Assembly: GCF_004010195.1 (NCBI RefSeq)
Contig: NC_057718.1
Location: 81,025,666-81,089,665, forward strand
Reading direction: 5' to 3'
Source of the DNA: Chiloscyllium plagiosum
Lineage: Eukaryota
DNA length: 64,000 nucleotides
Shown here: one piece after another, positions 17,843-51,300 of the stretch
Numbering within the stretch: position 1 is the stretch's first letter
Layout of the letters: every line of letters begins with the position of its first letter
The notes under the pieces: model-generated
The model's database searches: none
What the model saw: the letters and a program-made list of their open reading frames with translations, nothing else
What the model was told of the DNA's origin: nothing
Made by a program: the position numbers and the translations under genes

Positions 17843-17968
17843 TCCTGATGAAGGGCTTTTGCCCGAAACGTCGATTTCGAAGCTCCTTGGATGCTGCCTG
17901 AACTGCTGTGCTCTTCCAGCACCACTAATCCAGAATCTTGTTTCCCGCATCTGCAGTCATTGTTTTTA
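17843..17968 (+). mobile_element. 126-bp hammerhead-headed PLE terminal fragment inserted in the CR1 endonuclease region
   Basis: Imperfect TSD cca(t)agt(g/a)ttaagggt at 17828-17842 and 17969-17984. Matches the 3' end of the PLE at 31782-31910. Confidence 0.85.
17845..17872 (+). ncRNA. Minimal type-I hammerhead ribozyme motif, intact core
   Basis: CTGATGA-a-gggc-tttt-gccc-GAAA-c-GTC, with a palindromic, loopless helix III (acgt). Confidence 0.75.
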
Positions 17969-20357
17969 CCATAGTATTAAGGGTGTAGATGGAGAGGAAT
18001 TTGAGTGTGTACAGGAAAGTTTTCTGATTCAGTATGTGGATGTACCTATTAGAGAAGGTGCAAGACTTGACCTACTCTTGGGATATAAGGCAGGGCAGGT
18101 GACTGAGGTGTCAGTGGGGGAGCACTTTGGGGCTACTGACCATAATTCTATTAGATTTAAGATATTGATGGAAAAGGATAGACCAGATTGAAAAGTTGAA
18201 GTTCTGATTTGGAGAAAGACCAATTTTGACAGTGTTAGGCAAGGACTTTCAAAAGCTGATTGGGGGGCAAATGTTAGCAGGTAAAGGAACGGCTGGAAAA
18301 TGGGAAGTCTTCAGAAATGAGATAACAAGAATCCAGAGAAAATATATTCCTGTCAGGGTGAAAGAGCAGGCTGGTAGTTATAGGGAATGCTGGATGACTA
18401 AAGAAATTGAGGGTCTGTTAAGAAAAAGAAGGAAGCATATGTCAGGTATAGACAGGATAGATCGAGTGACTCCTTAGAAGAGAATAAAAGCAGTAGGAGT
18501 ATACTTGAGAGAAATCAGGAGGGTAAAAAGGGGACATGAGATAACTTTGGCAAATAGAGTTAAGGAGAATCCAAAGGGTTTTTACAAATATATTAAGGAC
18601 AAAAGCTAGGGAGAGAATAGGGCCCCTCAAAGATCAGCAAGGCAGTCTTTGTGTGGAGCCGCAGGAGATGGGGGTGATACTAAGCAAGTATTTTGCAATG
18701 GTATTTACTGTAGAAAAGAGCATGCAAGATATTGAATGCAGAGAAATAGATGGTGACATCTTGAAAAATGTCCATATTACAGAGGAGAAGGTGCTGGATG
18801 TCTTGAAATGCACAAAATTGGATAAATCCGCAGGACCTGATCAGGTTAACCCTAAAACTCTGGGAAGCTAGGGAAGTGATTGCTGGGCCTCTTGCTGAGA
18901 TATTTGTATCATCGATTAATCACCGGTGAGGTGCTGGAAGAGCAGAGGTGGGCTAATGTGGTGCCACTGTTTAAGAAAAGTGGTAAGGACAAGCCGGGAA
19001 CTATAGACCATTGAGCCTGACGTCTGTGGTGGGCAAGTTGTTGGAGGGAATCCTGAGGGACAGGATGTACAAGTATTTGGAAAGGGAGGGGTTGATTAGG
19101 GATAGTCAACATGGCTTTGTGCATGGGAAATCATGTCTCATAAACTTGATTGAGTTTTTTGAAGAACTAACAGTGAGGATTGATGAGGGCAGAGCGGTAG
19201 AGGTGATCTCTATGGACCTCAGTAAGGCATTTGACTAGGTTCCCCATGGGAGACTGGTTAGCAAGGTTAGATCTCACAGAATACAGGGAGAACAAGCCAT
19301 TTTGGATGCAGAACAGGCTCAAAGGTAGAAGACAGAGGGTGGTGGTGGACAGTTGTTTTTCAGACTGGAGGCCTGTGACCAGTGGAGTGCCACAAAGATC
19401 GGTGCTGGGTCAACTACTTTTCATCATTTATGTAAATGATTTGGATATGAGCATAAGAGGTATAGTTAGTAAGTTTGCAGATGACACCAAAATTGGAGGT
19501 GTAGTGGATAGCGAAGAAGGTTACCTCAGATTATAATGGGATCTTGATCAGGTGGGCCAATGGGTTGAGAAGTGGCAGAGATGGAATTTAATTCAAATAA
19601 ATGTGAGGTGCTGCATTTTGGGAAAGCAAATCTTAGCAGGACTTATACACTTAATGGTAAGGTCCTAGGGAGTGTTGCTGAACAAAGAGACCTTGGAGTG
19701 CAGGTTCATAGCTCTTTGAAAGTGGAGTCACAGGTAGATAGCAAAATGAAGAAGGCGTTTGGTATGCTTTCTTTTATTGGTCAGAGTACTGAGTACAGGA
19801 GTTAGGTCATGTTGCGGCTGTACAGGACATTGGTTAGGCCACTGTTGGAATGTTGTGTGCAATTCTGGTCTGCTTCCTATTTGAAAGGGTTCAGAAAAGA
19901 TTTACAAGGATGTTGCCAGTTTGGAGGATTTGTGCTATAGGGAGAGGCTGAACAAACTGGGGCTGTTTTATTTGGAGCATTGGAGGCTGAGGGGTGACCT
20001 TATAGAGGTTTGCAAAATCATGAGGGGCGTGGATAGGATAAATAGACCAAGTCTTTTCCCTGGGATGGTGGTGTCCAGAACTATAGGGCATAAGTTTCTG
20101 GTGAGATGGGAAAGATATAAAAGAGACCTAAGGGGCAATTTTTTCAGTGTGTCTGGAATGAGCTGCCAGAGGATATTGTGGAGGTTAGTACAATTGCAAC
20201 ATTTAACAGGCATCTGGATGGTTATATGAATCGGGAGGGTTTGGAGGGATATAGGCTGGGTGCTGGCAGGTGGGACTAGATGGGGTTGGGATATCTGGTT
20301 GGCATTGGCAGGTTGGACCAAAGGGTCTGCTTGCATGCTGTACATCTCTATGACTCT

Positions 20358-20890
20358 ATGTTGCGGCTGCACCAAACATTGGTTGGGCCATGTTTGGAAT
20401 ATCATGTTCAATTCTGGTCTCCATGCAATTGGATGTGAAACTTGAAAGGGTTCAGTAAAGATTTATAAAGATATTGCCAAGGTTGGAGTTTTTGTGTTAT
20501 AGGGAGAGGCTGAATAGGTTGGGGCTATTTTTCGTAGAGCGTCAAAGGCTGACCTTATAGCAGTTTATAAAATCACGAGAGGCATGGATAAAGTAAATTG
20601 ACAAGGTGAGAGAGTTCAAAATTAGAGGGTATGAGAGGGGAAAGATTTAAAAGGAACCTGAGAGGCAACTTTTTCACTCGGAGGGTGGAGTGAACTGCCG
20701 GACGAAGTAGTGGAGGCTGGAACAGTTACAACATTTAAAAGGCATCTGCATAGCTATATGAATACAAAGCGTTTAGAGGGACATTGGCTAAATGCTGGCA
20801 AACAGGACTAGTTTAAATGAGGCTATCTACTCGGCATGTGAGATTTGGACCAAGGGCATGTTTTTGTGCTCTACCACTCTGATTCTATGA
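20358..20890 (+). mobile_element. 3' half of the older CR1 that begins at 14318
   Basis: Degenerate ORF2 C-terminus and 3' UTR ending in ctgattctatga. Confidence 0.75.
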
Positions 20891-22349
20891 AATATCAACT
20901 TTAAGTAATAGTAGGTCTTAGAAAATTACTTTGGTGGACACACATCCTGATGGTTACTGCTCTGTGAATCAGTGTTTTTCTAAATTGCATGAGAAAGTGA
21001 ATAAAGTCAATTTTATTATCCGACCTATCAAGTAATGCAGTTAAAAAAGAAAATCCTTGATGGCCATGCTGACAGCTGTTGGCTTTATAATTAAAGGTTT
21101 TATTATTTCTATAAAGCTCTGAAAATGCAAATAAAAGTTTATTATGTATTGAGGGATATGTTCAAGGCCACAGCAATCTGAGACATCATTCTCTGTATGA
21201 CACTGAATTTTTATTTTGCACAGTCAATCAAACTAAAAGTGGATGGAACTAAGTTGTCAGTCTGATAACTGAGTATGAGTTGCTGTAAAGGAGTAGAATG
21301 CTCTTTGATCACATGACTTTTAAATTGAGGAAACAACTCCTCTGGATGCAACATCAAATATCTTAACATATCTGTATGACACTTGCACATTTAATTTGTG
21401 CAAGATGTTGCTTTTATGTATTGACTGACCATCAATTTTAAGATGATCATATGATTGAAAGTTTTTTAAACTGGCAAAACATAAATAGTCAGTTCTTCAC
21501 TATTATTATGATACATGGAACTATTTTTCCTTTTGATTTACTTAGCCTGGATGTGTTGACCTATATATTTTTTTTTACTGTATTACTGTATCAGATTTTC
21601 AGTATGGTGACATTAAAATGATCAAGCATTTCACACTGGCTGAAATGGAACTAAAGTGCGTCCTTTGATTAATATGTCACATGAGCATTAACAATTGATG
21701 GAATAATTTTATGTTGCGTTGGAGTGTAATCTGTTACGTCTTGTATAGCAATATAGAAAATTGACATTACTTATGGCCAAGTAATTTTATTCATCTAAAG
21801 TTTAAAAGACATTTGGAAGGACTGGACTAAACTTGAAAAGACATTTGGATGGATACATGAATAGTGAAGGTTTGGAGAGATTTGAGCCAGGAGCAGGCAG
21901 GTGGGACTAGTTTAGTTTGGGATTGTGTTCAGCATGGGTTGGTTGGACCGAAGGTCTGCTTCTGTCCTGTATGGCTATGTATTTTACATCTGTCACTCTG
22001 TAATCTATGAATGACAAAGTTGAATTTTTTTGAGGAAACTTTAGAACTTAGTTTTTCACATTACCAGAATGAATAGATGGTTTGAAAATAACTTAGTCTG
22101 TTTTGCTTTCAGATTTTTTTCTTTTCTTCACATGTGATGGAAGAGTTTGCTTCAAATTATAAATAAATTATACAATTGCATAAAAAGACAAAGTAATAAA
22201 TTGGAAAAAAACCTAATTTTATGGGGATGATATCAGGAAAATAATCATGAAAAATCTTGTCAAAGAAATAGAATACTTCTGTCATAATTTCATGTTTTCC
22301 CTGAGTACAGGAACAGTGTATCTCATTAAAACTCTTAAGAAAAAAAAAA

Positions 22350-23228
22350 CAATCACCATGGGAAAAGAATGGACTTATAAGGGAGAGTGAGCATGGCTTT
22401 ATGCTGGGGAGGTCCTCACTCTCAAAACTTTGAGTGATTTCTTTGAGGAAGTGAAAACGTTGATTGAGAGTACAGCATTGGATGTGGTCAACGTGGACTT
22501 TATGAAAGCATTTAACAAGGTTCCTCATGATGGGCTGGTCCAGAAGATCAAGTCATATGGGATCCACGATGAGTTGGTTTGTTCGATACAAAATTGACTT
22601 GGCTATAGAAGACAGAGTTTAGTTTTGGAAGGGTGATATTCTGACGAGAGTTTTGTGACCAGCGGTGTTCTGCATGGATCAATGCTGGGACCTGATTTAG
22701 ATGAAAATGCAGGAGGTCCAGTTAGGAAGTTTGCAAATGACATGATAATTGGTGGAATAGTGAGGAAGATTGTTAAAGGATACAGCAGGATATGGATCAG
22801 TTGGAAAGTCAGGCGGAGAAACAGCAGACGGAGTTTAACAAGAATGAAGTGCTGCATCTTGGGAGTTCATATGCAGGAGGCAAATATACTGTAAATAGCA
22901 GGACCATGTGGAGCATTGACATGCAGAGTGAACTTGGGGTGCAAGTCCATTGCTCTCTGAAAGTGGGAACGCATGTGGACAGGGTGCAAGTCATGGAGCT
23001 ATCTAAGACTTTAATTAGGCCTTTGGACTTTAATTAGGCCTTTGTGTGTAGCTCTGGTTGCCACACGGTAGGAAAGATGTGGACAACTTGGAAAGAGTGC
23101 AAATGAGGTTTGCCAGTAGGTGTTGGATTGGAGTATTTTACTTATCAAGAAAGGTTAGACAAAAATGGATTGTTTGTTGAAAAGTGTCAGAAGCTGAGGG
23201 TTGACTTGATATAAGTATCTAAAATTGA
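22350..23228 (+). mobile_element. Old CR1 RT fragment
   Basis: VDFMKAFNKVPH; TSGVLHGSMLGP; KFAND; EFNKNEVLHLG. Confidence 0.75.
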
Positions 23229-23420
23229 GAAAGTTAAAAATCAAACAACAGCAGGTTATAGACCAAAAGGTTTATTTAGAAACACTAACTTTCAGAACAC
23301 TATCCCTTCATCGGGTATCTGTGGAGAAGGATCATAAGACATGTATTTATAGCAAAAGATTACAGTGCCATGCAGCTGAAATGATATGTTGAACAACCCT
23401 AGATTGTGGTTGAATCTTTC

Positions 23421-24802
23421 GTAGAGTCATAGAGATGTATAGCACGGAAATAGGCCCTTCGGTTCAACCCAGCCATGCTGACCAGATATCCCAACCCAAT
23501 CTAGTCCCACCTGCTAGCACCTGGCCCATCTCACTCCAAACCCTTCCTATTCATGTACCCATCCAAATCCCTTTTAAATGTTTCAATTGTGCTAGCTTCC
23601 ACCACTTCCTCTGGCAGCTCATTCCTTACATCATCTTGAAAATGTTGCCCCTTAGGTATCTTTCACATCTTTCCCCTCTCACCCTAAACCTATGTCCTCA
23701 AGTTCTGGGCTCCCCATCCCAGGGAAAAGACTTGGTCTATTTATCCTATCCATGCCCCTCATGATTTTGTAAACCTCTATAAGGTCACCCCTCAGCTTTC
23801 GACGTTCCAGAGAAAACAGCCCCAGCCTGTTCAGCCTCTCCCTATAGCTCAGATTCTCAAGCCCTGGCAACATCCTTGTAAATCTTTTCTGAACCCTTTC
23901 AAGTTTCACAACATCTTTCCGATAGGAAGGAGACCAGAATTGCACGCATTATTCCAACAGTGGCCTAACCAATGTCCTGTACAGCCGCAACATGACCTCC
24001 CAACTCCTGTAATCAATGCTCTCGCCAATAAAGGAAAGCATACCAGGCATCACCGTCACTGTCCTAGCTACCTGCGACTCCACTTTCAAGAAGCTAGAGA
24101 CCTGTGCTCCAAGGTCTATTTGTTTAGCAACACTCCCCAGGGTCTTACTATTAAGTATATAAGTCCTGCTAAGATTGCTTTCCCAAAATGTAGCATCTCA
24201 CATTTATCTGAATTAAACTCCATCTGCCACTTCTCAGCCCATTGGCCCATCTGATCAAGATCCTGTTGCAATCTGAGGTAACCTTCTTCACTCTCCACTA
24301 CACCTCCAATTTTGGTGTCATCTGCAAACTTATGTCATCTGCAAACTTACTAACTATACCTCTTATGCTCACATCCAAATCATTTACATAAATGACGGGA
24401 AGTAGTTGACCCAGCACCGATCCTTGTGGCACTCCACAGGTCACAGGCCTTCAGTCTGCAAAACAGCCCTCCACCACCACCCTCTGTCTTCTACCTTTGA
24501 GCCAGTTGTGTATCAAAATGGGTAGTTCTTCCTGTATTCTGTGAGATCTAACCTTGCTAACCAGTCTCCCATGGGGAACCTTGTCGAACACCTTACTGAA
24601 GTCCATATAGATTACATCTACCGCTCTGCCCTCATCAGTCCTTTTTTGTTACTTTTTCAAATAACTCAATCAGGTTTGTGAGACATGATTTCCCATGCAC
24701 AATGCCATGCTGATGATCCCTAATCAGTCTTTGCCTTTCCAAATACATGTACATGTACATCCTGTCCCTCAGGATTCCCTCCAACAACTTGCCCACCAGT
24801 GA
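23421..24802 (-). mobile_element. 5'-truncated CR1 nested in the PLE
   Basis: QFWSPSYRKDVVKLERVQKRFTRMLPGL; QWAEKWQMEFNSDKC. The 3' tail lies at 23421. Confidence 0.9.
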
Positions 24803-25125
24803 CATTTCATCTTTTTGAATGGGTTGCAGGTCTTAGTTTATTAATATGTAAATCCTAGAACTACTTTTAAGTCACATTCTCGAGATAACTTAAGGTTTTT
24901 ATATTAAAGAAGTGACATCTCAGCTCAGACAATGCTTAAAGGTATGAGGTTAAGAGAATATCTGTATCCCAATCTTGAGTCAAACTGGTTCTATTTCCAA
25001 AGTAGGAATTTATAAAATGTTACATGGATTACTGGCTGCATTGACTGCCTACAGGTTGTGTTTTTTTGAGCAAAATAGAATGTATCTGCAAATATAATTC
25101 TGCAACTGCAAATTCACCACATAGA

Positions 25126-25315
25126 CGTGTGTGTGTGTTTGCGCGTGTGAGACAATATTTGCATGTGCGCGTGCTTAGTAAAGTGTGTGAGAAAGTGTGA
25201 TGGAGCATAAGCCTGTGAAAGTGTGAATGCATGAGTGTGTGTGTGTGAGGGTGTGTGTGTGTGTGTATTTATGAGAGAGAGCATGTGTTTGAGAGACGGT
25301 CTGCGTGAGTGTGAG
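25126..25315 (+). repeat. Degenerate (GT)n/(GA)n tract in the PLE 3' UTR
   Basis: Multiple gtgtgt runs. Confidence 0.8.
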
Positions 25316-26615
25316 ATTGTATAGTGTAGTGGGGTCACGTGTAGTGTGACCATGTGTAGTGTGACATGAACCCAAGGTCCCGGTTGAGGCCATCCTCATG
25401 GGTTCTGAACTTGACTGTCAGCCTCTGCTTGGCCACTCTGCGTGGTTGCGTATCCTGAAGTCCTCCTCGGAGAATGGACACCCGAAGATCTGAGGTTGAT
25501 TGTCCCTGACTGGGAGAGAACACTGTATCTGGCAATTGTTGCATGGTGTCCATTCATCTGTTGTCGTAGCATCGCTTGGTCTCTCCAATGTATCGTGCAT
25601 TGGGGCATTCTTGCCTGAAGCGTATGAGATAGACAACGTTGTCTGAGTGACAGGAGTACCTGCCGTGTGCATGATGGGTGGTGTCCCTATGTGTGATGGT
25701 GCCATCCATGTTGACACTCTGAAATGTCTTGCAGTGGTTGCCATGACAGGGCTGTACGGTGTTTTGATTGATGTTGTCCTGAAGGCTGGGCAGTTTGCTG
25801 TGAACAATGGTCTGGTTAAGGTTTGGTGGTTATTTAAAGGTGAGAAGTGGAGGCGTAGGGAAGGTCTTGGTGAGGTCTTCGTACTCATTGATAATGTATT
25901 GCAGGCTGTGAAGAACATAGCGTACTTTCCCTGCTCCCGGGAAGTACTGGACTACAAAGGGTACCCTATTGGTTGCATCCTGTATCACTCTCCTGAGGAG
26001 GTAATTTGTGGCTTCTCAGTGTGGCACATTGGAACTGGCAATCGATGAGTTGAGCACCAAACCCTGTTCTTATGAGAGCATTCTTGAGCACCTTCAGGTG
26101 TACATTGCGTTCCTTCTCATCAGAACAGGTCCTGTGTATGCGTCGGGCATTTCTGTAGGGACTGGCTGTTTTAATATGTTTGGTGTGGAAGTTAGAGAAG
26201 TGCAGCATTGTGAGGTTATTCATGGGTTTGCAGTAGAGTGAGGTACTGAGGTGCCATCACTGATGGAGATGCATGTATCCAAGAATGAGACTGATACTAA
26301 AGAGTTGTCTGTGGTAAGTCTGATGGTGAGATGAAATTTGTAGATATCTCTGTGTAGTTGTTTCAGTGACTCCTTGCCATGGGTCCAGAGGAAGAATATG
26401 TTGTCAATATATCTGGTGTAAAGTGCTGGTTAGAGGTCCTGTGCAGCAAAAAAGTCTCGCTCAAACCTATGCATGAAAATATTGGGGTGCAAATTTTGTC
26501 CCTAGTGCTGTTCCATCTGTCTGGATGAAGAATGGCTGTCAAAAGTGAAAACGTTGTGGTCGAGGTTGAAGCGGATGAATTGTCGGATGGTGCTCTGATA
26601 TTGGCAGTTGTTACA

Positions 26616-28413: not shown

Positions 28414-28545
28414 AGGAGAACGTACGGACTGCAGATGCTGGAGTTTAGAGTCGAGTGTGTGGTGTTGGAAAAGCACAGCAGGTTAGGCAACATCCGAGGA
28501 GCAGGAAATCAACTTTTCGGGCAAAAGCCCTTCATCAGGAATGAG
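28414..28545 (-). mobile_element. 132-bp hammerhead-headed PLE terminal fragment
   Basis: TSD gag(c/t)aacatcatat at 28400-28413 and 28546-28559. Minus strand CTGATGA-a-gggc-tttt-gccc-GAAA-agtt. Confidence 0.85.
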
Positions 28546-29181
28546 GAGTAACATCATATGCCGTACTCCCAGTTGCGTTCAGCAGTTGAATGGTTTGTTC
28601 AGCTTCTGGCTTAGTGTCGAGTTCTATTGTGCCTCAAGAATTGTTTTGTCCAGGCTATTCGATTTTTATGTTCTATTTAACCCATTTCTGATATTAAATC
28701 TTCCTTGAAATACTATTTCAAATGTCACCGCTTCCTAATATTATTCACTATGTTATTATTCTTCATTTTATGTTTCTGTGACACCAGTTCTCCCATACTT
28801 TACTGTTAGAGGTTTTTCCTGTTTGATATGACTATACATGTGGAATCCTGTGCTTTTGTAGCTGTAATGGAGAATTTTTGCACTTCTGTGACTGTTGCAA
28901 GGATTTCTGTCTTCCCTGACTATTGGAACTATTCCTGCTTTTTTCAGATTTCCTGCCTTTTGTTGGCTGTAATGGAGGACTCCTGCCTTTTAGTGTCTAC
29001 AATAGCATCTCCTGAAAATGTTGTGTATCAGACCAGAACTGCTTGCTTGCTTTTAAATTGCCCAATGCGTGGTTGCTTCAAATGACTTGGCGAGTTTGTG
29101 ATTTCCCCAGTTCCCTTCCCTGTTCTAAGATTGTGAATTTCTCTTTGTCTTGGTAGTTCAAGTCTATGATTTTTGGCCTTG

Positions 29182-31290: not shown

Positions 31291-31370
31291 TTTTCTGTGT
31301 AATACCTTTGTGTGTATTCCATAGGTTTATCTATGGTCTGCAATATAAATAACCACATTTATTTATAATA

Positions 31371-31912
31371 GCCCCGTGGCCCAACATTTCAACTCCCCCC
31401 TCCCACTCTGTCGAGGACATGGAGGTCCTGGGCCTCCTTCACCGCCGCTCCCTCACCACCAGACGCCTGGAGGAAGAACGCCTCATCTTCCGCCTCGGAA
31501 CACTTCAACCCCAGGGCATCAATGTGGACATCAACAGCTTCCTCATTTCCCCTTCCCCCACCTGTTCCTAGTTTCAAACTTCCAGCGCCGCACTGTCCCC
31601 TTGACTTATCCGGACTTGTCCGACCTGCCTAGCTTCTTTTCCACCTATCCACTCCACCCTCTCCTCCCTGACCTATCACCTTCATCCCCTCCCCCACTCA
31701 CCTATTGTACTCTATGCTACTTTCTCCCCACCCCCACCCTCCTCTAGCTTATCTCTCCACGCTTCAGGCTCTCTGCCTTTATTCCTGATGAAAGGCTTTT
31801 GCCCGAAACATCGATTTTGCTGCTCGTCGGATGCTGCCTGAATTGCTGTGCTCTTCCAGCACCACTGATCCAGAATCTGGTTTCCAGCATCTGCAGTCAT
31901 TGTTTTTACCTC
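31371..31912 (+). mobile_element. PLE 3' fragment (GIY-YIG C-terminus, 3' UTR, hammerhead, tail)
   Basis: Manual frame PVAQHFNSPSHSVEDMEVLGLLHRRSLTTRRLEEERLIFRLGTLQPQGINVD. HHR CTGATGA-a-aggc-tttt-gccc-GAAAc-ATC at 31785-31812. Confidence 0.88.
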
Positions 31913-32380
31913 TAAGAATAGGGCCAATCAAGGATAGTAGTGCGAGGTTGTGCATGGAGTCAGAAGAGATGGGTGAAGCGCTAAGTGAATATTTTTTCAG
32001 TATTCACACTGGAAAAAGACAATGTTGTCAAGGAGAATACTGAGAAACAAGCTACTGGATTAGATGGGATTGAGGTTCACAAGGAGGAGGTGTTAACAAT
32101 TCTGGAAAGTATGAAAATAGATAAATCCCCTGGGCTGGATGGGATTTATCCTAGGATTCTCTGGGAAGCCAGGGAGGTGATTGCAGAGCCTTTGGCTTTG
32201 ATCTTTATGTCGTCATTGTCTAAAGGAATAGTACAAGAAGACTGGAGGATATCAAATATTGTTCCCTTGTTCAAGAGGGTGGGAGTAGAGACAACCCAGG
32301 TAATTATAAACCAGAGAACCTTACTTCTATTGTGGGTAAAGTGTCGTAAAAGGTTTTAAGAGAGGATTTATAATCATCTG
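31913..32380 (+). mobile_element. Internal CR1 ORF2 fragment
   Basis: [40 protein letters not shown]. Confidence 0.85.
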
Positions 32381-32464
32381 AGCCCATACCAGAAATGGCT
32401 GAAAACATTCTAAGCCATTCTAAGACAAACCAAAATTTTCACATGATGGTTGCCTATATGTATT

Positions 32465-33994: not shown

Positions 33995-34470
33995 GTAAAA
34001 TATAATGGATGGTAGATATCTGAAATAAAAACAAAATATTGCAAATTCTCCTGTATAGCAGCATCTGTGGAGGAACAAGTCGTTTGTTTCAAGGTATTGC
34101 CTTTCTATCAGAATTGGAAAATGTTAGAAATGTGACAGGGTTAAAATGAGTGTACATGGAGAGCGAGGAGGGCAGATACAACAGAAGATCTGTGATACGG
34201 TGGAAACTGTCAAGATTGGTAAACAAAAAAAAAGTTAATGATGCAAAGCAAAATGGAATGGGGCAGATTATGGAAACCAAAAATGGAGCTGTGGAAGGTG
34301 TAAATTAGAAAGCATAATCATCACTAACCATCCAAAAACACAGTCAACTATCTCAAACTGAAATGGGGGCAAAGGTTGTGACCTGAAATTGTTGATCTCA
34401 TTATAGAGTCCAGAAGTGAATAATCAAAAGGTGAAGAACAGTGTAGGAAGCCAGGTCAGTGTGCAGCAAG
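33995..34470 (-). mobile_element. Old PLE 3' terminus remnant
   Basis: Resembles the termini at 6846-6940 and 52590-52670 (ctgaaataaaaacaaaatattgc..gcagcatctgtggag). Confidence 0.5.
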
Positions 34471-36384
34471 AACAACTCCACTAGTCCCACCTCACTGGCC
34501 TTTCTGCATGGTTCTGCAAATTTTTTATCCTGTAAAATAATTATCCATTTTCTTTTTTAAAGCCTACTGTTGAATATGTGACCTGCATGGTCTTGGGCAA
34601 TACATTCCAAGTTTCAAGCACTTGCTGCAGAAGAGATTTTTCTTGTGTTACACCATAATTTATCAGAGGACGGTTGGATAAGAGATGTCAGTGCTCAAGA
34701 TCACCAATAGATCCTTCTGCATGAGCTGTCTGATAACTGCTGTTTGGATGACATGTGACTCTTCTAAAGACCCGAATGATTTTGACATGATTGATATTTT
34801 AATGTTTAGCTTATTCCCTTCAACTGCACTGAGTATGATTTATCTGTAGGTGAAGGATAGTATGTTTCCATTCTCTTCTTTCATACAGATTGCTATGCTT
34901 TCCTTAAACTGGATGTTTTGAAATGCATTATTATTCTTTTGTATCGATCTTAAATTAGCTTGCTAATATATTGCCTTGGAAGTGGGATCAGCCAGTGTTT
35001 GGGACAGAGAGCTTGAATGTATGCAGTTAAAACACAACAGTGTGCTTGGGTTTTTTTCCAATTTCGGAATCAATAATATGTTGCTGTACATTGTTGCAAT
35101 GAAGTTGCAAGATGAATTCTACTGCTAAACACCTAGTATGAATTCCGAAAATTTCCTCGATGTTTTTGTGAAGTATACTTTGGGCTATTTTAGTGGAAAA
35201 TATTTTTCAGGGTGAGAACGTCTATGTTCTCTAAATTTGCCATTGAATGCATGTGTCAATATTACACAACATTTAATGCCAGAAATGTGTATTGTTGACA
35301 TTTGTTTAGGAGCTGAGATATTTATGTAAGACAGGAGCAAACAAAATGAGTTACAGAAGTCTGCCCTGTAAGTGGTGAAATTTTGATTTTTATTATAGAA
35401 ATGCTCATGGAGATTCCTTATATTGTTTCTGTTGTTTCTCTCATTTTTCTTATACCTATCAGAAAGGGGCATGACCACTGATCTTGTTATCAGCCACTAA
35501 ATATTATGGACTGAATTTGCCAAAATTTTGAGGAATTTCATGGAGGATTTCACTCAGTGAGTACACGTATAAAATGTATATAGTGTCATAGTGTCATACA
35601 GCATGGAAACAGACTCTTGAATCCAACTTGACCACGCCAACCAGATGTCCCAATCTGGCCACCTCCCATTTGCCAGCATTTTGCCCATATCCCTGTAAAC
35701 TATTCCTATTCATGTGCCCATCCAGATACCTTTTAAATGTTGTAATTCCAAGTGACTTTGGACATGTAATTTTACACTGCTCACTGGTGCAAGAGGGCTT
35801 TATAGCTCTAACTGCACAGTTCAGATGCTGCTAGGCTGGCCTGAAGTTGCTTCCTGGAGCGTGGCAGTTACCCTGATGCAGAGGAATGTACAGCCTCAAT
35901 AGTTCTGACCCACCCCAACCCCCAAACTCCTAATCCTTTCAGTCCTCTGTGATTTCTGCTAAATCCCAGCACTGAGGATGGACCAGCCCCCTAACTGACC
36001 ATCATGTCCTTGCTGGACTGAATCAGAAGTCACACGACACCAGTTCATAATCCAACAGGTTTATTTGAAATCACAAGCTTCCAGGGCACTGCTCCTTCAT
36101 CAGATGAAGTGGAGGGAACCACACAGGCACAGAATCTATTGGCAGAGAGATAACTGCAAGATAATTCCAGGTAATTAAGGGTGTCAAAAGTTAGTACAAA
36201 TGGTTTGGAGTGTTGGCAGGCTGAATAAAAAATCTTTGCAGACAATCAAAAAGTGTCAAATGGTGTGAGTAAGGTGTCAACAGCTGAACAGCAAGTGCAG
36301 GGATAACCTGTGATCCAATTAATTAAAGCAGAGAGATAATTACAGAAAATCAGAAAAATGATGGTGCCAGAGACCAACCAAATG

Positions 36385-36569
36385 AAACAAGCTGGAGGCT
36401 GGAAGAACGCATCAAGATAGGCAGTATTAGTCAACGTTTTGGGTGTAACCCTTCTTCAGGTCCTCCTGGACCTTCTCCATCTCATGATGTTGCCTGGCTT
36501 GCTGTGTTCTTCCAGCTTCCTGCTTGTCTACCTTGGATTCCAGCATCTGCAGATTTTTTGCCTCTGTCC
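36385..36569. mobile_element. 185-bp fold-back PLE derivative nested in the left arm
   Basis: TSD gagac(c/a)aaccaaatg at 36370-36384 and 36570-36584. Inverted arms of about 40 nt, HHR at 36433-36459 (-), and a one-sided tail. Confidence 0.8.
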
Positions 36570-37968
36570 GAGACAAACCAAATGGCTAGAATAACATGAT
36601 CGGTATAAGAGTCACATGACGAGGGTCTAACCAAAGTGACAAGTAATCCAACACTGTACAAACAAATTAAGATAGGGAGATAGTAACAAATTATCATGGT
36701 GATGTTGTCAAAACAGAACAATATGGGAGATTTTGCAAGCACAGAGCAGTATGCTGGGGTTACATGTAGCATGATATGAACCCAAGGTCACAGTTTAGGC
36801 CGTCCTTATGGGTACAGAACTTGACTATCGGTTTCTGCTCAGCAATTCTGCATTGCTGTGTCTCTAAAAGACCGTCTTGGAGGACTCTTACCCAAAGATT
36901 GGCAGCTGAATGTCCTTGATCGCTGATGTATTCCCTGACTGGGAGAGAGCACGCCTGCCTGGTGATTATTGTGCAGTGTCAGTTTATCCGTTGTCACAGC
37001 GTCTGCATGGTCTCGCCGATATACCATTCCTTGTGGCATTCTTTCCTGCAGCATATGAGGTAGACAGCATTGGCCGAGTCACATGAGTACCTACCGTGTA
37101 TATGGTAGTTCGTGTTACCACATGGTGGTAGTATCCATGTTGATAATCTGGCATACCTTGCAGAGGTATGTCAGGGTTATGTGGTGTTATGGTTGCTGTT
37201 CTCCTGAAGGCTGAGTAGTTTGCTGTGAAATATGGTCTGACATGGCAGATCATCAATATGGATACTACTATCACACATGGGAACACCACTCACCATGTAC
37301 ACAGTAGGTACTCACATGAATTGATCAATGCCGTCTACCTCATATATGCTGCAGGAAAGGATGCCATGTGGCATGGTATATTGGCTAGACTATGCAGATG
37401 CTGTGACAACGGATGAACGAACGCCGCCCAACAATTGTCAGGGAGGAGTGTTGCCTCCCATTCGGGGAACATTTCAGGATCAAGAATGTTGTGCAGATGA
37501 TCCTTGGGTAAGCGTCCCCCAAGGCAGCCTTTGAGACACACAACGCAGAATCGCTGAGCAAAAACTGATAGCCAAGTTCTACACCCATGATGACAGCCTT
37601 AACTGTGATCTTGAGTTCATGTTTCACACATGGAACCCCACCATACTATTGTGTTTGCAAAATCTTCCTTACTGTTCTATTTTGACACCATTGCCTTGAC
37701 AAATTGTTATTATCTCTCTACCTTAGTTTGTACAGTATTGGATTACTTGTTACTTTGGTTAGACCCTTGTCATGCCACTCTTATACCTATCATGTTATTC
37801 CAGCTATTTGGTTTGCCTCTAGCACCATCTTCGTTTTTGATATTTTGAAATTATCTCACTGCTTTAATTAATCAGATTATAGGTCATCTCTGCACTTGCT
37901 ATTCAGCTGTTGACACTTTATTCTCATCACTTGACACTTCATGATCACTTGTAAAGACTTGTTATTCA

Positions 37969-38741
37969 AAGTTTGGGAGAAGATTTGTAGCTCGGGTGCT
38001 CGTTGTTGTGGTTCTGTTCGCCGAGCTGGGAATTTGTGTTGCAGATGTTTCGTCCCCTGTCTAGGCGACATCCTGAGTGCTTGGGAGCCTCCTGTGAAGC
38101 GCTTCTGTGATCTTTCCTCCGGCATTTGTAGTGGTTTGAATCTGCCGCTTCCGGTTGTCAGTTCCAGCTGTCCGCTGCAGTGGTCGGTATATTGGGTCCA
38201 GGTCGATGTGCTTATTGATTGAATCTGTGGATGAGTGCCATGCCTCTAGGAATTCCCTGGCTGTTCTCTGTTTGGCTTGTCCTATAATAGTAGTGTTGTT
38301 CCAGTCGAATTCATGTTGCTTGTCATCTGCGTGTGTGGCTACTAAGGATAGCTGGTCGTGTCGTTTACCAACTAGCCACGAAACGACACGACCAGCTATC
38401 CTTAGTAGCCCCACACGCAGATGACAAGCAACATGAATTCGACTGGGACAACACCACTATTATAGGACAAGCCAAGCAGAGAACAGCCAGGGAATTCCTA
38501 GAGGCATGGCACTCATCCACAGATTCAATCAATAAGCACATCGACCTGGACCCAATATACCGACCACTGCAGCGGACAGCTGGAACTGACAACCGGAAGC
38601 GGCAGATTCAAACCACTACAAATACCGGAGGAAAGATCACAGAAGCGCTTCACAGGAGGCTCCCAAGCACTGAGGATGTCGCCTAGACGGGACGAAACGT
38701 CTGCAACACAAATTCCCAGCTCGGTGAACAGAACCACAACA
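37969..38741. mobile_element. Young, near-perfect palindromic PLE insertion
   Basis: Exact TSD acttgttattca at 37957-37968 and 38742-38753. Arms 38002-38366 and 38381-38743 with a 14-nt spacer, and a 33-nt tail at 37969-38001. Both arms encode the GIY-YIG C-terminus (H...HEFDW.N..II....R..REFLEAWHS). Confidence 0.93.
38670..38701 (+). ncRNA. Minimal hammerhead ribozyme motif, intact core
   Basis: gca-CTGAGGA-t-gtc..gac-GAAA-c-GTC-tgc, with helix I gca/tgc. Confidence 0.7.
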
Positions 38742-41700
38742 ACTTGTTATTCAGCATGTCAACTTTCCACTGACATAATTTATACTACCTTTTGACACTC
38801 TTAAGTACCTAGAATTATTTTGCAATTATCTCTTTGCCTATAAATTCTGTGCCTGCGTGCTTCCCTCCACTTCACCTGATGAAGGAGCAATGCTCTAAAA
38901 GCTTGTGATTTCAAATAAACCTGTTGGCCTATAATCTGGCGTTGTGTGTTGTATGACTTGGTCCACTCCAGTCCAACACCATCACCTCTACTTACTGGAC
39001 TGAACACTGGTTCTTTTAGATTTCTGACATGGCCGTTTGGTTGAAGCACATGTAGTGTATTTGTTTCCTAAATCTGTTGCAGCATGCTGTAGATGTGACT
39101 ATGATGTGCCATAGTGCTTACACCAAAATGTCTATTAATTTGACTGTTTTTGGGAGACATGACCAGGTGCTGGGCTTTGTCTGTGCTGCAAGGCAAGGCA
39201 GGAATGTTCTGAGCAATGTAAACGCAAAGTGAGTGAGCAAGCCAACTAAGAGCTCTGAGGTGCACCATACTCTGATGTATGAGACACAAAGTGGCCTGGC
39301 AACAGCATTGCAATGTCAGGTGTCAGTGAGCTCCAAAGTGCTGTATTAAGGTGCTAAAGCCTATTATAATCAAGTTTTGGATGTGCCAAGATGATATTGT
39401 AAGGCTGGTGCTTTGTCGATACAGACCTGTTTAACAGAGATTGCAGGTGGTCACTGCCCAAGGATTGTGCCCCTGAAGTGTCAGAAAATGATGGCCAAGT
39501 TGTATGCCCAGAGAACTGCAGATGCCACACTACTACTGACTTGTTGAGAATTTGTGCCATCTGATTTTTAATTCAGCAGTAGCTGGGGAAAAAAAGCAGT
39601 CTGCATATAAATGAGGTGAGATGCAGCTATGTTGAGCTGTTAATGCTTGCAAATAGTGCTCACTAGTGAGATTTTTCATCTAGCGGTTGAAAACTTAAAT
39701 GGAAAATCAGCTTCTTTTAGTTTCTCAGTGTCAAGAATCTCATTCTTCATTCTTGTTATGATTTTTCATCTGTCTTGCCCATGTCATTCAAGAGGCTGAG
39801 GTATTCAGCCCTGGTTTTTCTTAGATTTGCTCCCATTTCCAAGATGGTAGATGGGAACCATCTTGAAAGAGCAGAAATTCAAATATTTAAGAAAAAGGAA
39901 TGTGGGAAAATAAAGACTGAAAAAAGAGTGGGAAAGAATAATATAGCGTGGGGGGAAACATAAGATGAGCAGGCAAAATTGTTCGCTTGTATTATCTCTG
40001 TCCACATGTATGCTGCCAGTATCGAACTCTGCCTCAATTTCATTTGACTTGGTTCCTCATCTGACTCTGAGCTGTTTAATTGCTTGTCGAATATCCAGAA
40101 CTGGATGAGCAGAAATTTTCTCTGTTGAAATATTTGATAGGTGCCATTAAAGGTGATTTTAAGGGCAGTAAAATAAGGCTTGCAAGATGGCTGAATTACA
40201 TAGGATGTGAACTTTCACATCCTATAATAGCAGATTGATGTGGAAAGATGAAGTCAATGATGAGTTTGCAGCAACTTGAGGATTATGTCAGCCTTTTTTC
40301 TTTTGGCAAGCATGTGGGGTTCATGCTTGTAATAGCTTTGTATGCCATGAAGGCACATTAACATGGAACCAATATCAGTGAAATCCTACTCTCCACATAA
40401 AGTTGGAAAATGGAAAGGTTTTATACTGCACTTAGTTCATGATTGTTCAAAGGTGATGTGCTTTAGTCAGCTTTGTGCAGTTTTGACTAAGATAAGCAGT
40501 CTCTCTGTTGAACTTTGTGTGGTGCCGTGTTGTGGGTCTTGGAAGTTTGGTGTTTTAAGTGCAGTGAAGTACGGCAGAGTGAAGGAAATAGTGTTTTGGA
40601 TGCAGTGGTCTTGTAAGGAAGAGAGATTTGGTGGATGAAGGCTGGGTTTGAAAAATGGCTGGAGAGCCTAAAGCACTGGATTGGTGCTTTCAATGGATTT
40701 GTCCTAAGAATCAAGTTAAGGGTGTGTTGGCCACAGGTAGAGCATTCGAAGTCCTTTCTTCCTAAGATATTTGAACCCTCTGCACTCTCAATGTTTTTGA
40801 TTTGCCTCATCCCATCTACCACAAGCATCTAGCGGGCCTTCATCCTGGTACTGCTTGCAGCAAAGGCAGTACCCACCATGAAGCTTTGAACCTGGCAGTA
40901 CAACTAAAGCTGCTAGCCAGCCTAGCAGGGGTGGAAGTCCTGTTGTAAACCAACCTCATCTTGCAAAGTGCATTATCGCTGTGGGGTAAGCCTCTTATCA
41001 ATCTGGTGTTTTCCTTTGATAGGGACAATGGTGTGGGTCAGTATTGTTTGCATTTTAATAAGGGGAACAGATATGAAAACATCACTCAACTATTTCAGTT
41101 TTTGTTTTGATTTTCTTTATCAACCATTACATCTAGTTGCAACTCTGCCATCACCTGAACTGGAGCCAGTTTGCTCTGTCATGCCCCATTGACTTAGATG
41201 ATCTTGGTAGATATCTGCTGGAGGTAGGGGGCTTAATAGCTCCAGATTACTAGAGATTTTCTTCATTGATGCAGGAGTGTCATCCTCGGCTCCTTGTGCT
41301 GAAGCTGTTGGGATCAGTTGTGGAAGTAGTGAAGAAGTGCTGTTAATGTTGTAGATATTCAGACATGAGGGATCTGATACTGCTCCTTCACCTGGGTGCA
41401 CGAATCCATCTCTGTTCACTGAGGAGATCTGTGTATCTTTTGCTAGCCACTGCTCCACTGAGCACATGATTAGTATTAGAAAGCAGTTTGGAGCGCATAT
41501 GGGTAATCTTCCATGGCAGTCACCACCCTTTCCAAGATTGAAGCTGTTAACTTAAATACAAGAGAACTTGCAGATCTCATGCCATGCATGGTCTCCTGCT
41601 TACCCTGTGCAAAGCTGTACATGATCTGTGCAGTCTAAGAAGTGTACCGCTGTTAGTCTGGTAGGTTCTGTGCAAGCAGTCAGGGAATTTGCAGATTTTT

Positions 41701-43739
41701 CATTCTTGTTGTAGATTGCTTCGGCGTCTGGTCAGTCATTAGTCTAGGCTGTCAGCCCAAGTTGGCCGGAAGGTTGGGCCACAGTCAGTCCTCCATGATC
41801 AATTCAATGAACACTTTAGGTGACGGGGTTGAGGGTTGGAATATTAGAGAGCACTGTTTTGGAAGAGGAGGGAGGTGGGAGGGAGAACCAACCCTGAGAA
41901 GTAGAGGCAGAAATTTGAGATACTTCGGGGACAAGGATGTTGAAGAGGGGAAATTTGATATTCATAAGGGCGTTTTGTGCATGGGATACTGTGGGAGATG
42001 GAGGTTATAGGCAGTTACCACCACTGTTGTCTCCAACAGAGGAGTGTGCATTACGATGGAGGACATGATTAAACTGTAGTGACTGGGCTTAGGGTGTAAG
42101 TATGAGTTGCTGTTGTAATTCCAGTTCTAGATGAGAACATGTAGCGGAATCAGTCATGATGGACTGTCCAGGTAGAAAGGGACATGGAGGTGGGTGGGCC
42201 CTGATAATCAGCTGAGCCTGGGATTCACTGTACCTCGTAAACCTGCATTGCCTTCAATGAGATTTTGATTCCGTTATGTGACCAAGAATAGAAAATGGCA
42301 GCAGATACAACGGGTGGATGGAGTCATTTCTATTTGCGGGGCTAAACGTCAGGGGTGGGGTCTCAACATTTCGGTGATGGGAGGCCCTCCAGGGGTCAGC
42401 TGCATCAGTCATGCACTTATAGAATCAAAGTTCACTTTTTTGCAATCATATGGTTTTTATGGTGCATTAAAAGTGTCCCCATTTCTAAGCCTGAAATTCC
42501 GGATTCATGTCCCATCTGCTCCAGAAAATTATAATAACATCTGTAAACAGGCAGTTGAAAAAATGACTAAGCACTTTTGTGCAGTAGTGGTGTCCCAACT
42601 TCTCAATCATGAGGCCTGGATTCACATCTCACCTGCTCTAGAGGTGTGTAATAACATCTCTGAACAATTGAATAGAGAATACCTTACTCTTGTCAAGTGC
42701 ATGCAGCATATGACTTTGTGGGATACAAATGCTGGTTGCAGGCAATTTTAGGAGAAAATGAGGGCTGCAGATGCTGGAGATCAGAGCTGAAGGCAATTTT
42801 AACCATGTCCTTACAGATCGAAAATAGACATCTCTTTGAGACAGAGGTAATCTCAAACACATTAAAAGTTGAACCTGCAGGCCACGAAATACAAAGCCAA
42901 TGCCAGACCTCAGACAACACAGGGCTACATAGGCCCATACTGACTGTAAGTATAAAGCAACATGCTATTACTTTCAGTGACGTCTTTCATGGGTGATGTA
43001 GAGCTGGGAAGCGAAGAGTTCAGTGCTCATGCAGCACTTGCAATCTCCCAGTGTATCTATGTGATATTATTGGTGGTGTTTTCATTGGAATAAAGTCCAA
43101 TGTCAAAGCTGGATGCAGAGTAATTCCATGACTCTCATTGTGGAAATACTCCATGCCCCACTGCATGGAATAATATGCAAAAATATCATTTGAGAGTGAT
43201 GTGAATACTGACTGCTTGCATTACTGTGGATCTTTCCATTCCTTATGATTCCCAAACATGGCAACTGATAGATCCAGCCACAGCAGGTGTTATTGTCGAG
43301 GTTATTGGAATGCAACAAAATTGCAGAGAAATAGTAGAGAAAAAGGTGTGACCAGGACCAGTAGAAACATAGTGGTACCAAAACCCTGCACATGAAGGGC
43401 TCTCAGGATGTGGAAGAAGTTCGAGGGCCAGAACCTATCATCATTGATACCCAAACTGCACCCTGTTCATTCATGAGAAATGGTAAGATTAAACTGTCCC
43501 AGAACTTTTTCTGAACAATGTCAGCTGCTGGAGTGGGACTTGTGACCTGAAGGGGTGGGTGGCCAACCTATTCTGATCACTGATTTTCTGTTCCAGAGCT
43601 TATGCTCGAAATGTCAACTCTCCTGCTGCTTGGATGCTGTCTGACTGGCTGTGCTTTTCCAGCACCACATTTTTTGACTCTATATTGTTTGATTCAAGGT
43701 GACAGTCACAATGTGACTCAAGGTGACTGGCTTGTTCCA

Positions 43740-44400
43740 AATAGCCAACAGCAACCTGTATGGAATCTCAGGTTTCCACACACAAATGTATTTAGACTAT
43801 TGCTGATGACATTTATGGTGAATCAGAGAGCTTCATCTCATTTCTCTGTGATAAGCTTAGTGCTGCAGTTTGGGCAATAAGATTCATGAACATAGTTGGT
43901 TTCCCTGACTTGTAGCCATCATAGACTGTAAACATTTTGCATTGAAAGGAAAATGTCATAATGCAGCTGAGTTCATCAATAGTAAAGGATTCCAGTCCAT
44001 CAATGTGCAAGTGACCTCTGTTCATAGGTTCCACTTCTCAGACGTTTGCACAAGTTTTCCTAGGCGTTGCCATGTTTCAAATATGGTTGTGACCTCTCAT
44101 GTTTTTGCTGCAGTTCGGGGCCACATGTATTACAAGGATGGTTCGTGGCAGTCAAATGCTATCCTTTGTGACCAGGGCTGATGATACTGTCGTGCAGTGC
44201 TGCTAACTGAATTGGAGCCTAGATATCTTGCTGTCAATTTTTCGACAAAGGCCACGATGAAGCAGAATATGGGCCTCCTAGCAATGAGATCCTGGTGCTT
44301 GGTTAGTCTGTGGTCTCTTGCAGTACATTCCAGATGTACACTGCTGCATAATTCTAGCATGCTATTCTCCACAAAACTGGAGAAAGTAAAGAGAGGGTGT
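43740..44400 (+). pseudogene. Fossil PIF/Harbinger (HARBI1-like DDE) transposase
   Basis: Frameshifted motifs GIS..STHKCI; VGFP..IIDCKHFALK; FINSKGFQSINVQV..F.DVC..FP..CH; TKATMKQNMGLL.MR..CL; LHN. Confidence 0.75.
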
Positions 44401-50300: not shown

Positions 50301-50545
50301 TCCTGCACCATCTCTGTGGCCACATGTTGAACTGCTCTCTCGCCCTCGTCCTTGCCTCGCTAGCATGTGGCACAGATAACAAGCCAGAGATGACCTCTCT
50401 TGTTTGTTCTAGCTCTAAGCTTCCACCCCATCTCCCTGAATTTTTTCCTTACATCCTCAGTCCTTTTCCTACCTATGTCATTGGTGCTTATGTGGATCAC
50501 GACTTGGGGCTGTTCCCCCTCCCATTAAGGATCCCAAAAACACAA
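47316..50545 (-). mobile_element. Long decayed CR1 (ORF1 esterase end, endonuclease, RT, 3' UTR)
   Basis: The 248-aa RT ORF at 47886-48632 ([16 protein letters not shown]), endonuclease remnants at 49400-50050, and a DGLHLN remnant near 50230. Tail of the (ctatgtt)n subfamily. Confidence 0.9.
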
Positions 50546-51174
50546 TCCAAGACATTAAAAGTAGTATATTCTCCAGTCCAGGAGAAGGAACACAGCAGAA
50601 TGAATCTAGTAGCAGGGAGAGAATTCAAGCTTTTGCAGCAGCAGCGAGAGATCTGTATCGAGCAGCTTCAACTCCAAAGCCTTCAACAACTGAAAACAAA
50701 AACTAAAAACCCTGGGTCTGTGTGAGCCTGACTCCAGTTACTTATGCTTCTTTTGTCTCGCTTATAAAAAAGCTATTTCTATTGCTTTCCATTGAGCAGA
50801 CACCTCTCCACCAGGTTGACAACACTACTTTCAAGACAAACAGGACTGAACAAATTCTTCTTTAAGTTCTATATTGTCACATGTACACACATGCACGTAT
50901 ATGTGGAATTGGCAAATCAAAAGATTGGTAGTTGTCCAGTGCAAGTTCTTGGAACACTGGCATGCTGGAGATCTTCACTGGTGCCGGGAGTGAAGGTGGG
51001 TAAAGTGGGTTTGCTGAGAACAGTGAGGGAATCTCCAATGAGAACAAAGGTCAAAGATTTAGCAAAAAGAAAAAACAGAAGCCTTCAGCCTTGTGCTGTC
51101 CATGCCTCTGCAGCTTTCTCAGTTGCAAATGAGCTGCCAAATGAAAGTGACACCATCGCCAGACCACTGACATC

Positions 51175-51202
51175 CTGAAGAAGGGCTTATGCCCGAAACG
51201 TC
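51175..51202 (+). ncRNA. Minimal hammerhead ribozyme motif, intact core
   Basis: atc-CTGAAGA-a-gggc-ttat-gccc-GAAA-c-GTC-gat, with helix I atc/gat. Confidence 0.75.
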
Positions 51203-51300
51203 GATTCTCCTGTTCCCTGGATGCTGCCTGACCTGCTGCGCTTTTCCAGCAACACATCTCCGGCTCTGATCTCCAGCATCTGCAGACCTCACTTTCTCCT
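51175..51300 (+). mobile_element. 126-bp hammerhead-headed PLE terminal fragment
   Basis: TSD cactg(a/g)catc at 51165-51174 and 51301-51310. The insert begins exactly at the HHR core. Confidence 0.85.

Follow-up and report, generated by a model that had tools for sequence, protein, structure and literature searches.

Insertions of endonuclease-positive Penelope-like elements (PLEs) are described, in the accessible text of PMC8557442 and PMC3846280, as 5'-truncated, with pseudo-LTRs (pLTRs), an inverted truncated copy and an optional tail of 30-40 bp, and solo pLTRs are mentioned in that of PMC3846280. The minimal hammerhead ribozymes (min-HHRs) of metazoan PLEs number thousands per vertebrate genome and are mostly single motifs, ascribed to truncated PLEs (PMC4209133). 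In Poseidon of Anolis carolinensis (PAc), the hammerhead lies at the ORF start, and the enzyme nicks DNA, starts reverse transcription at two internal sites approximately 110 nt into the ORF, adjoining the hammerhead, and extends both strands; uncleaved RNA is the main template and cleavage is dispensable (PMC11167929). The animal non-LTR retrozymes, which carry a type I hammerhead, are defined by tandem arrays, at least two hammerheads and abundant circular RNA (accessible parts of PMC7229834 and bioRxiv 10.64898/2026.07.22.740005).

The window analysed here is a stretch of 64,000 nt from Chiloscyllium plagiosum (contig NC_057718.1). A preliminary description had reported three TSD-flanked inserts of near-equal length in it, each starting 0-7 nt before a hammerhead core, and we confirmed for c1-c3 these starts, the coordinates, the lengths (126-132 bp) and the duplications of 10-16 bp, the latter being imperfect (Table 1). 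Relative to the core, the 5' ends lie at -2/-3 (c1), -7 (c2) and 0/-2 (c3). The TSD of c1 can be aligned over 12 bp ungapped with one mismatch or over approximately 16 bp with one gap, and the insert splits a LINE-like reading frame (...GDFNFPNID*DC on the left, HSIKGVDGEEF... on the right). The TSD scores were compared with those at 300 random positions with equal search slack: the score of c2 (11) was reached at none, that of c1 (9) at two and that of c3 (7) at 14, so that the c3 duplication on its own is modest. The ATC 5' of c3, proposed to supply helix I at 51175 from the target, does fall within the duplication, but its TC equally fits the ATTC of the element itself, and hence this 5' junction can also be read as microhomology of 2-3 nt.

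Table 1. PLE-derived insertions in the window
Feature	Position	Strand	Description
c1, short insert, subfamily A	17842/3-17970	+	Hammerhead core CUGAUGA at 17845, then tail
c2, short insert, subfamily C	28414-28545	-	Core at 28538; 14-bp TSD, 1 mismatch
c3, short insert, subfamily B	51175-51300	+	Core CUGAAGA at 51175; 10-bp TSD, 1 mismatch
Long copy, subfamily A	31370-31912	+	C-terminal ORF end, 3' UTR, core at 31785, tail
Long copy, subfamily B	59201-59819	-	Endonuclease-region ORF end, 3' UTR, core at 59301
Tail-only insert, ~40 bp	42751-42790	-	90% to c3 tail; 11-14 bp TSD; without hammerhead
Old tail-less copy	43595-43682	+	Start ~8 nt inside hammerhead
Small fold-back insert, another subfamily	36385-36569		15-bp TSD with a single mismatch, identified by eye
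Small fold-back insert, family related to 38670 element	11591-11753		11-14 bp TSD

An Rfam search of the window (E<=1) reported no hammerhead family, so the motif was identified by sequence against the min-HHR description in PMC4209133. As in that description, the copies have a CUGANGA core, an extra base before helix II, a short helix I and a palindromic helix III, whereas helix II of the window copies is only 4 bp; PMC4209133 has no mapping of single-copy starts. Core, helix II and cut triplet are all present in c1 and c3, in agreement with the proposed minimal hammerhead in a PLE terminal repeat, and the helix III palindrome of c2 is mutated (GAAAAGUU). The bare core pattern gave 10 matches in the window against 7.1 expected, that is, no enrichment, and exact hammerhead patterns were found at 0 loci in both viral and metagenome contigs. 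The units fold no better than shuffled sequence (z of +0.63 for c1, +0.19 for c2, +0.75 for c3 and -0.54 for the unit of the long copy). The 5' ends of c1-c3 lie approximately 28-35 nt upstream of the predicted cut, which upholds the earlier view that simple self-cleavage cannot explain them. Termination of reverse transcription by the ribozyme structure, which had also been suggested, fared less well: the folding z values of the inserts are 0.2-0.75, and reverse transcriptase would be expected to run into the fold on the 3' side while the ends lie on the far (5') side, so a structural stall is unsupported.

We then compared short with long copies. Pairwise identity among c1, c2 and c3 was 75.6-81.6%, compared with 91.5% between c1 and the long subfamily A copy and 94.1% between c3 and the long subfamily B copy. 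A clade of the short copies (c1-c3 monophyly) was rejected by the AU test (p=1.9e-7), which included one short copy per subfamily and in which masters within a subfamily are beyond reach. As judged from these comparisons, c1-c3 are end-pieces of three distinct PLE subfamilies, and one mobile family is ruled out; nor do they appear as a clade of their own apart from an autonomous partner, as would be expected of a SINE-like family. The single discrete SINE- or retrozyme-like family proposed in the preliminary description is not borne out, since the short copies fall together with the long ones of their respective subfamilies; this pairing, found in the tree of short against long PLE copies named there as a check, is one half of what had been set out as evidence against it. 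The tail said to be common with the coding fragment 31782-31912 agreed at 91.5% for c1, but at only 77% for c2 and c3.

In tblastn comparisons, the long A and B copies aligned at 54-85% with the C-terminal portion of P0002/P0003; the ORF end of the A copy is 70% to residues 402-455 of P0002, and the B copy lacks the last ~25 nt of the tail. A Pfam search of the window fragments alone gave no relevant match. Among full-length relatives, RVT_1 was above the cut-off in both P0004 and P0010, and GIY-YIG was above it in P0010 and just below it in P0004. By protein similarity, the parents qualify as endonuclease-positive Penelope-like elements (RT plus C-terminal GIY-YIG). The closest proteins, P0002/P0003, have a cysteine linker (CX2-5CxxC) between RT and endonuclease that is conserved across alignment A1, while the window A and B fragments end short of the linker region. 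Relatives of subfamilies A and B differ from PAc in carrying this linker, which is of the Neptune/Nematis type according to the accessible text of PMC8557442.

The insertions as a group resemble endonuclease-positive PLEs, as portrayed in the accessible literature, in TSD-flanked 3' ends, a terminal-repeat hammerhead, an optional tail and head-to-head fold-backs. The optional tail is seen in two 3' ends 46 nt apart, in the tail-only insert at 42751 and in fold-backs with a tail on one arm; two 3' ends flanking the tail are likewise a feature of PAc (PMC11167929). In the fold-back at 36385-36569, the minus arm begins at the hammerhead edge (core 36459) without the tail and the plus arm begins near the predicted cut with it. 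In that at 11591-11753, it is the plus arm that carries the tail, starting 3-5 nt ahead of a decayed core at 11639; the minus arm is tail-less and starts 2 nt before the predicted cut. A TSD was looked for at the 43595-43682 copy and none was found. On the strength of spacing and nearby coding fragments, three candidate short copies (23231-23367, 6841-6939 and 52594-52743) were reassigned to the ends of long insertions, the links of the first two resting on distances and not on continuous alignment.

A census that took in all PLE 3' ends found in the window, not hammerhead-headed copies alone, gave 15 insertions. Five of these, across five subfamilies, start in the 9-nt bin from -8 to 0, none was confidently placed between -30 and -290, and seven long insertions read through the helix I edge. 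For a bin that was picked after the fact, smooth truncation gave a binomial p<=1.5e-4 (exponential means of 50-1000 nt). Two DNA runs, X1 (possibly the source of the window itself) and X11, were compared over 31330-31925 from 18 listed of 1,592 loose-end rows, and contig depth was not taken as copy number. Among the rows listed, the 5' loose end with mixed flanks that drew the most contigs was at 31781 (-4), with 429 in X1 and 440 in X11, and X11 had a further 141 contigs at 31782. The loose parts at 31781 were long and agreed at only 0.33-0.35, which marks them as mixed genomic flanks; at the 5' alignment-loss sites 31396 and 31613 the agreement was 0.64-0.68. Because the loose-end consensus ends in a run of shared letters in both runs, this peak is read as inflated in part by subfamilies other than A, whose sequences depart from that of A upstream. 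The 3' loose ends at 31865 (363 in X1, 343 in X11) and 31911 (288 and 362) had similar counts.

These observations indicate that the pile-up of 5' ends at helix I is real, and the earlier statement that random 5' truncation is unlikely was supported by both the census and the 31781 end. In the accessible PLE literature (PMC8557442, PMC3846280), 5' truncation is variable, whereas a large share of the window ends falls within 9 nt at helix I. Clustering of PAc 5' ends is not mentioned in the accessible main text of PMC11167929, and no published description of PLE 5' ends clustering at the hammerhead edge was found in the literature covered, to which subscription journals and Repbase/Dfam entries did not belong.

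The reading that best fits these data, and to which we assign an even chance, is a template RNA starting at helix I, an option missing from the preliminary description. We suggest, with confidence evenly balanced against doubt, internal tail priming by the PLE RT, of the kind demonstrated for PAc (PMC11167929), and run-off on uncleaved RNA that begins at helix I, probably an mRNA leader. A hammerhead-plus-tail module near the mRNA 5' end would serve as the priming site, so that the cDNA would run off after ~130 nt as a strong-stop-like product, lose 0-4 nt and then join the target via short microhomology. The predicted start of the template RNA is 0-8 bases ahead of the hammerhead core, which is the likely reason that the inserts start just before the motif; the ordinary long copies with random truncation would arise by priming at the module's downstream copy. 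This run-off view is supported by the TSDs, the pairing of short with long copies by subfamily, the 5' pile-up and the two classes of 3' end, and also by relatives in which the module immediately precedes the ORF: in L004, L019 and L035, three of 10 relative loci, the first in-frame ATG is 3, 204 and 162 nt downstream of the hammerhead. The Drosophila virilis PLE, the only one with a mapped start, counts against a transcript start at helix I, since its transcripts start farther upstream, by 46 nt plus a 75-nt intron, and it is the intron end that maps to helix I.

In favour of a transcript start near helix I, subfamilies A, B, C and D each carry an initiator-like motif (YYANWYY) whose A falls at -4 (background 1.1-1.7% per position). 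The motif occurs at -7 in two of three family E copies, and it is missing from both F copies. It overlaps helix I and may be retained for pairing; as a general PLE feature an initiator at -4 was rejected, none of 22 hammerheads in metagenome PLE loci having it. Also against the reading, of eight shorter hammerhead-overlapping arms selected from the metagenome relatives, a sample in which long copies are over-represented, one starts at the edge and the others start between -245 and +24. A PLE alignment search of viral contigs gave 0 relatives.

Each subfamily could instead have its own short non-autonomous master, copied by the PLE, possibly via a self-cleaved circle from a head-to-tail dimer. 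We regard this as doubtful, although near-constant insert length and TSDs would suit it and one short copy per subfamily leaves room for masters within subfamilies. Descriptions of animal non-LTR retrozymes derive them from PLE pLTRs and give them many monomers, and the inserts resemble them in being non-coding, pLTR-related and dispersed as many monomers and in having a type I hammerhead (accessible parts of PMC7229834 and bioRxiv 10.64898/2026.07.22.740005); unlike retrozymes, c1-c3 occur singly, contain the minimal motif and are paired with long coding counterparts. A head-to-tail joint from 31911 to 31792 does exist among the joints listed (three contigs in X1, one in X11), but its depth (39.6 and 15.3) is at single-copy level, and the window yielded no tandem array of the unit among the seven matches listed, so the arrays of at least two units that define retrozymes were not seen. 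Nor are the short copies one clade, and such masters would require independent origins in at least five subfamilies. In the poly(A) single-cell RNA run X21, depth over the unit was about equal in the two directions (~500/520), as expected of copies inside host transcripts and not of a dedicated RNA; no start or end pile-up is listed for this run, whose fragmented reads are unable to show ends or small circles. RNA depth in X21 steps 8-10-fold at the hammerhead, but no copy ratio was taken from this, since it is to that part alone that other subfamilies map, at 80% likeness. No tRNA was found in a tRNA search, and a loose scan gave a one-mismatch A-box-like match overlapping the core in three of three copies and a one-mismatch B-box-like match in one of three.

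Three further explanations were considered. An RNA-protein complex might set the end, either through a 5'-to-3' nuclease that trims to a protein-bound hammerhead or through release of the enzyme after copying the module. In favour of this, the ends sit at helix I's outer base and scatter over 8 nt in five subfamilies, and the Anolis hammerhead cleaves only with protein, the binding region being inferred to fall within the first 172 nt of its ORF; however, the RNA alone is of no unusual stability, the seven long insertions pass the same site, and a structural stall would be expected 3' of helix II, where the DNA-run rows listed hold no 5' loose end, so that we consider the complex unlikely. A boundary made by DNA cutting at ATT before the core, or by a 3' splice site at helix I, seems quite improbable. 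Cutting would suit the preference of the Anolis enzyme for 5'-ATT-3' and the ATT found at -4..-2 in subfamilies A-C, but both small fold-backs start at the edge without a visible ATT; the D. virilis intron end at helix I and the AG at -4/-3 in D and F would fit splicing, whereas the nearest AG in A and B is at -19 and -27, and the exon-1 letters that a spliced template should leave between TSD and hammerhead are absent from c1-c3. Ordinary random truncation, with clustering produced by selective notice and by alignment loss of other subfamilies at the same spot, can draw on the heavy 5' truncation of PLE copies, the predominance of single minimal hammerheads, the mixed composition of the 31781 peak and the post hoc bin, yet it is highly improbable given the unselected census and the low flank agreement at 31781.

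A wider form of the transcript-start reading is put forward only tentatively, as one we think unlikely: shark PLE mRNA would start at the hammerhead, a strong-stop-like leader cDNA of ~130 nt would be routinely made and inserted, and one dimeric enzyme, acting on two RNAs of which one is uncleaved and the other self-cleaved, would yield the tail-only, hammerhead-headed and fold-back inserts as discrete products. If so, the second arms at the predicted cut in both small fold-backs would record in the genome that minimal hammerheads undergo cleavage in vivo, of which the PLE and hammerhead literature covered contains no demonstration.

Taken together, the finding is a refinement of a known element class and no new system. 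How PLEs define their RNA, regenerate the pseudo-LTR and use the hammerhead is open according to the accessible text of PMC8557442 and PMC11167929, and the sharp common 5' boundary gives an exact position for these questions. Short inserts of this kind would account for the thousands of lone minimal hammerheads in vertebrate genomes without a separate ribozyme SINE.

The window is shark-like DNA densely packed with LINE and Penelope-like retrotransposon (PLE) fragments, and the closest named proteins to the PLE coding end at 31401–31568 were two from Chiloscyllium punctatum (70–72% identity). The sequence at the three short inserts, c1, c2 and c3, bore out both their presence and their description, each flanked by its own target-site duplication (TSD). 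The 5′ part of each runs from the CUGANGA core and one further A through a 4-bp hairpin and GAAA to the palindrome ACGU (disrupted in c2) and a GUC/GUU triplet, and c1 interrupts a LINE-like reading frame. Judged from its sequence, this motif matches the minimal PLE hammerhead of PMC4209133, in which lone hammerheads from truncated PLEs were already described; an Rfam search gave no match to a hammerhead in the window.

PLE insertions, with 5′ ends relative to the core (negative, 5′ of it) and, in brackets, random positions matching the TSD score
Feature	Position	Strand	Subfamily	5′ end	TSD or remark
c1	17842–17970	+	A	−2/−3	12 bp, 1 mismatch; ~16 bp if a gap is allowed (2/300)
c2	28414–28545	−	C	−7	14 bp, 1 mismatch (0/300)
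c3	51175–51300	+	B	0/−2	10 bp, 1 mismatch (14/300)
Tail-only insert, 40 bp	42751–42790	−			own TSD 11–14 bp; approximately the interval between two predicted priming sites
Small fold-back	11591–11753			hammerhead edge	other arm near predicted cleavage site
Small fold-back	36385–36569			hammerhead edge	other arm near predicted cleavage site
Long copy	31370–31912	+	A		core 31785
Long copy	59201–59819	−	B		core 59301

Among all 15 PLE insertions in the window with a readable 3′ end, five TSD-flanked insertions started at −8 to 0, namely all three short inserts and, by their hammerhead arms, the two fold-backs; the other ten comprised one old insertion (start ~+8), the tail-only insert, seven long insertions and one uncertain case (34005–34143). 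At least five of 15 starts within one 9-nt bin, here picked after the data were seen, has a probability of ≤1.5e-4 under exponential truncation with means of 50–1000 nt, and chance alone as the source of the clustering is highly improbable. Public DNA runs from two organisms, X1 and X11, the former possibly from the same source as the window, were aligned to 31330–31925 at 80% likeness, and the best 18 of 1,592 rows were considered. In both, the top 5′ loose end listed was 31781, 4 nt 5′ of the core (429 of 6,661 partly aligned contigs in X1; 440 of 6,965 in X11, with a further 141 at 31782), a peak partly inflated by other subfamilies, in which the hammerhead is shared and the upstream sequence divergent. 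Among the rows listed, its contig counts were similar to those of both 3′ ends (31865 and 31911), and its loose letters were long with an agreement of only 0.33–0.35, as in unrelated flanks, compared with 0.64–0.68 at 5′ sites of mere alignment failure. The 5′ boundary at the hammerhead edge is real, and the census and this peak together uphold the earlier view that random 5′ truncation is unlikely.

The proposal that the short inserts form a single family did not hold. c1–c3 shared 75.6–81.6% identity with each other, compared with 91.5% between c1 and the long copy at 31370–31912 and 94.1% between c3 and that at 59201–59819, both of which extend upstream into the endonuclease end of the PLE ORF. 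In a tree of seven of the eight aligned rows (the 40-bp tail-only row being omitted), a forced c1–c3 grouping was rejected (deltaL 43, AU p=1.9e-7). c1–c3 are more than one family. With one short copy sampled per subfamily, the tree is compatible with within-subfamily masters; non-autonomous masters as the source of the short inserts are quite unlikely.

Self-cleavage would place ends ~28 nt inside the core start, and none was found there among the X1 and X11 loose ends listed, in agreement with the preliminary description. Its two suggested origins fared less well. Termination of reverse transcription by ribozyme structure was not supported: the c1–c3 units folded no better than shuffles, and the enzyme would reach the fold from its 3′ side yet stop past its 5′ side. 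Nor was a retrozyme-like unit, which requires tandem units: the window contained none, and among the joints listed a head-to-tail joint occurred in three contigs of X1 and one of X11, at single-copy depth. Retrozymes are described as pLTR derivatives (PMC7229834; bioRxiv 10.64898/2026.07.22.740005). RNA coverage in X21, whose fragmented poly(A) single-cell reads could not show a pile-up of starts or ends, showed none and was approximately equal in both directions, which fits copies within host transcripts. An RNP-defined or trimmed end as the determinant of the 5′ boundary is unlikely.

Priming on a leader copy, followed by run-off from an RNA beginning at helix I, is the likeliest mechanism and stands at about an even balance of probability. 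The purified Anolis Poseidon protein nicks both strands and initiates reverse transcription internally, at two sites either side of the tail; its ORF starts within the hammerhead, and its main template is uncleaved RNA (PMC11167929). The window PLEs share this anatomy: their 3′ ends fall at two sites, the fold-backs carry the tail on a single arm, and one insert is tail-only. In three of the ten relatives examined (from 80 metagenome loci), a hammerhead lies 5′ of the ORF, with the first in-frame ATG 3, 162 and 204 nt further downstream, so that the hammerhead–tail module would also be the leader of a downstream copy. In a full-length relative, L004:323, the first in-frame ATG lies within the hammerhead core, resembling the Anolis arrangement. 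The enzyme would prime on the leader copy of the module, and the cDNA would run off the RNA 5′ end after ~130 nt, yielding short inserts whose junction has lost a few bases or has them in common with the target (ATC in c3). The template would start at helix I, a placement favoured by the initiator-like motif that four subfamilies carry at −4. Against such a start, this motif overlaps helix I and is missing at −4 in 22 of 22 hammerheads of relatives, and short arms in relatives begin at scattered positions (one of eight at the edge). In D. virilis, moreover, transcription starts ~120 nt upstream and an intron ends at helix I. An endonuclease or splice boundary setting the 5′ ends is improbable.

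The second arm of fold-back 11591–11753 begins at 11632, 2 nt before the predicted cut, and that of 36385–36569 at ~36479, near the cut and less clean. These two cases, which are not proof, fit either a self-cleaved second template or cDNA snap-back through helix I. The latter fold-back lies among nested PLEs (36013–38990), where a long inverted pair of family E encloses it together with a 770-bp palindromic PLE end (37969–38743; perfect 12-bp TSD), whose pivot gives weak Rfam miRNA matches (38329–38418, below gathering scores). Another family E PLE (23231–26550, −) is apparently split by a ~1.4-kb LINE insertion (~23409–24802).

Other repeats were also observed. A 144-bp inverted repeat (9440–9583/10198–10340; 96% identity, 600 bp between copies) had no match to the PLE and LINE families looked at. 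A short GC-rich repeat at ~3990–4100 (−) with A-box- and B-box-like motifs resembles a tRNA-derived SINE head; ARAGORN found no tRNA there. A 170-bp direct repeat inside LINE fragments (741–909/1763–1932; 93.5% identity, against far lower similarity among the window's other LINE copies) is possibly a local duplication.

Our literature search found no description of PLE 5′ ends clustered at helix I. The short-insert elements derive from endonuclease-positive PLEs and work like them, as these are described in PMC8557442 and PMC3846280, and the clustering is a genuine feature that adds a modest new regularity to a known element class.
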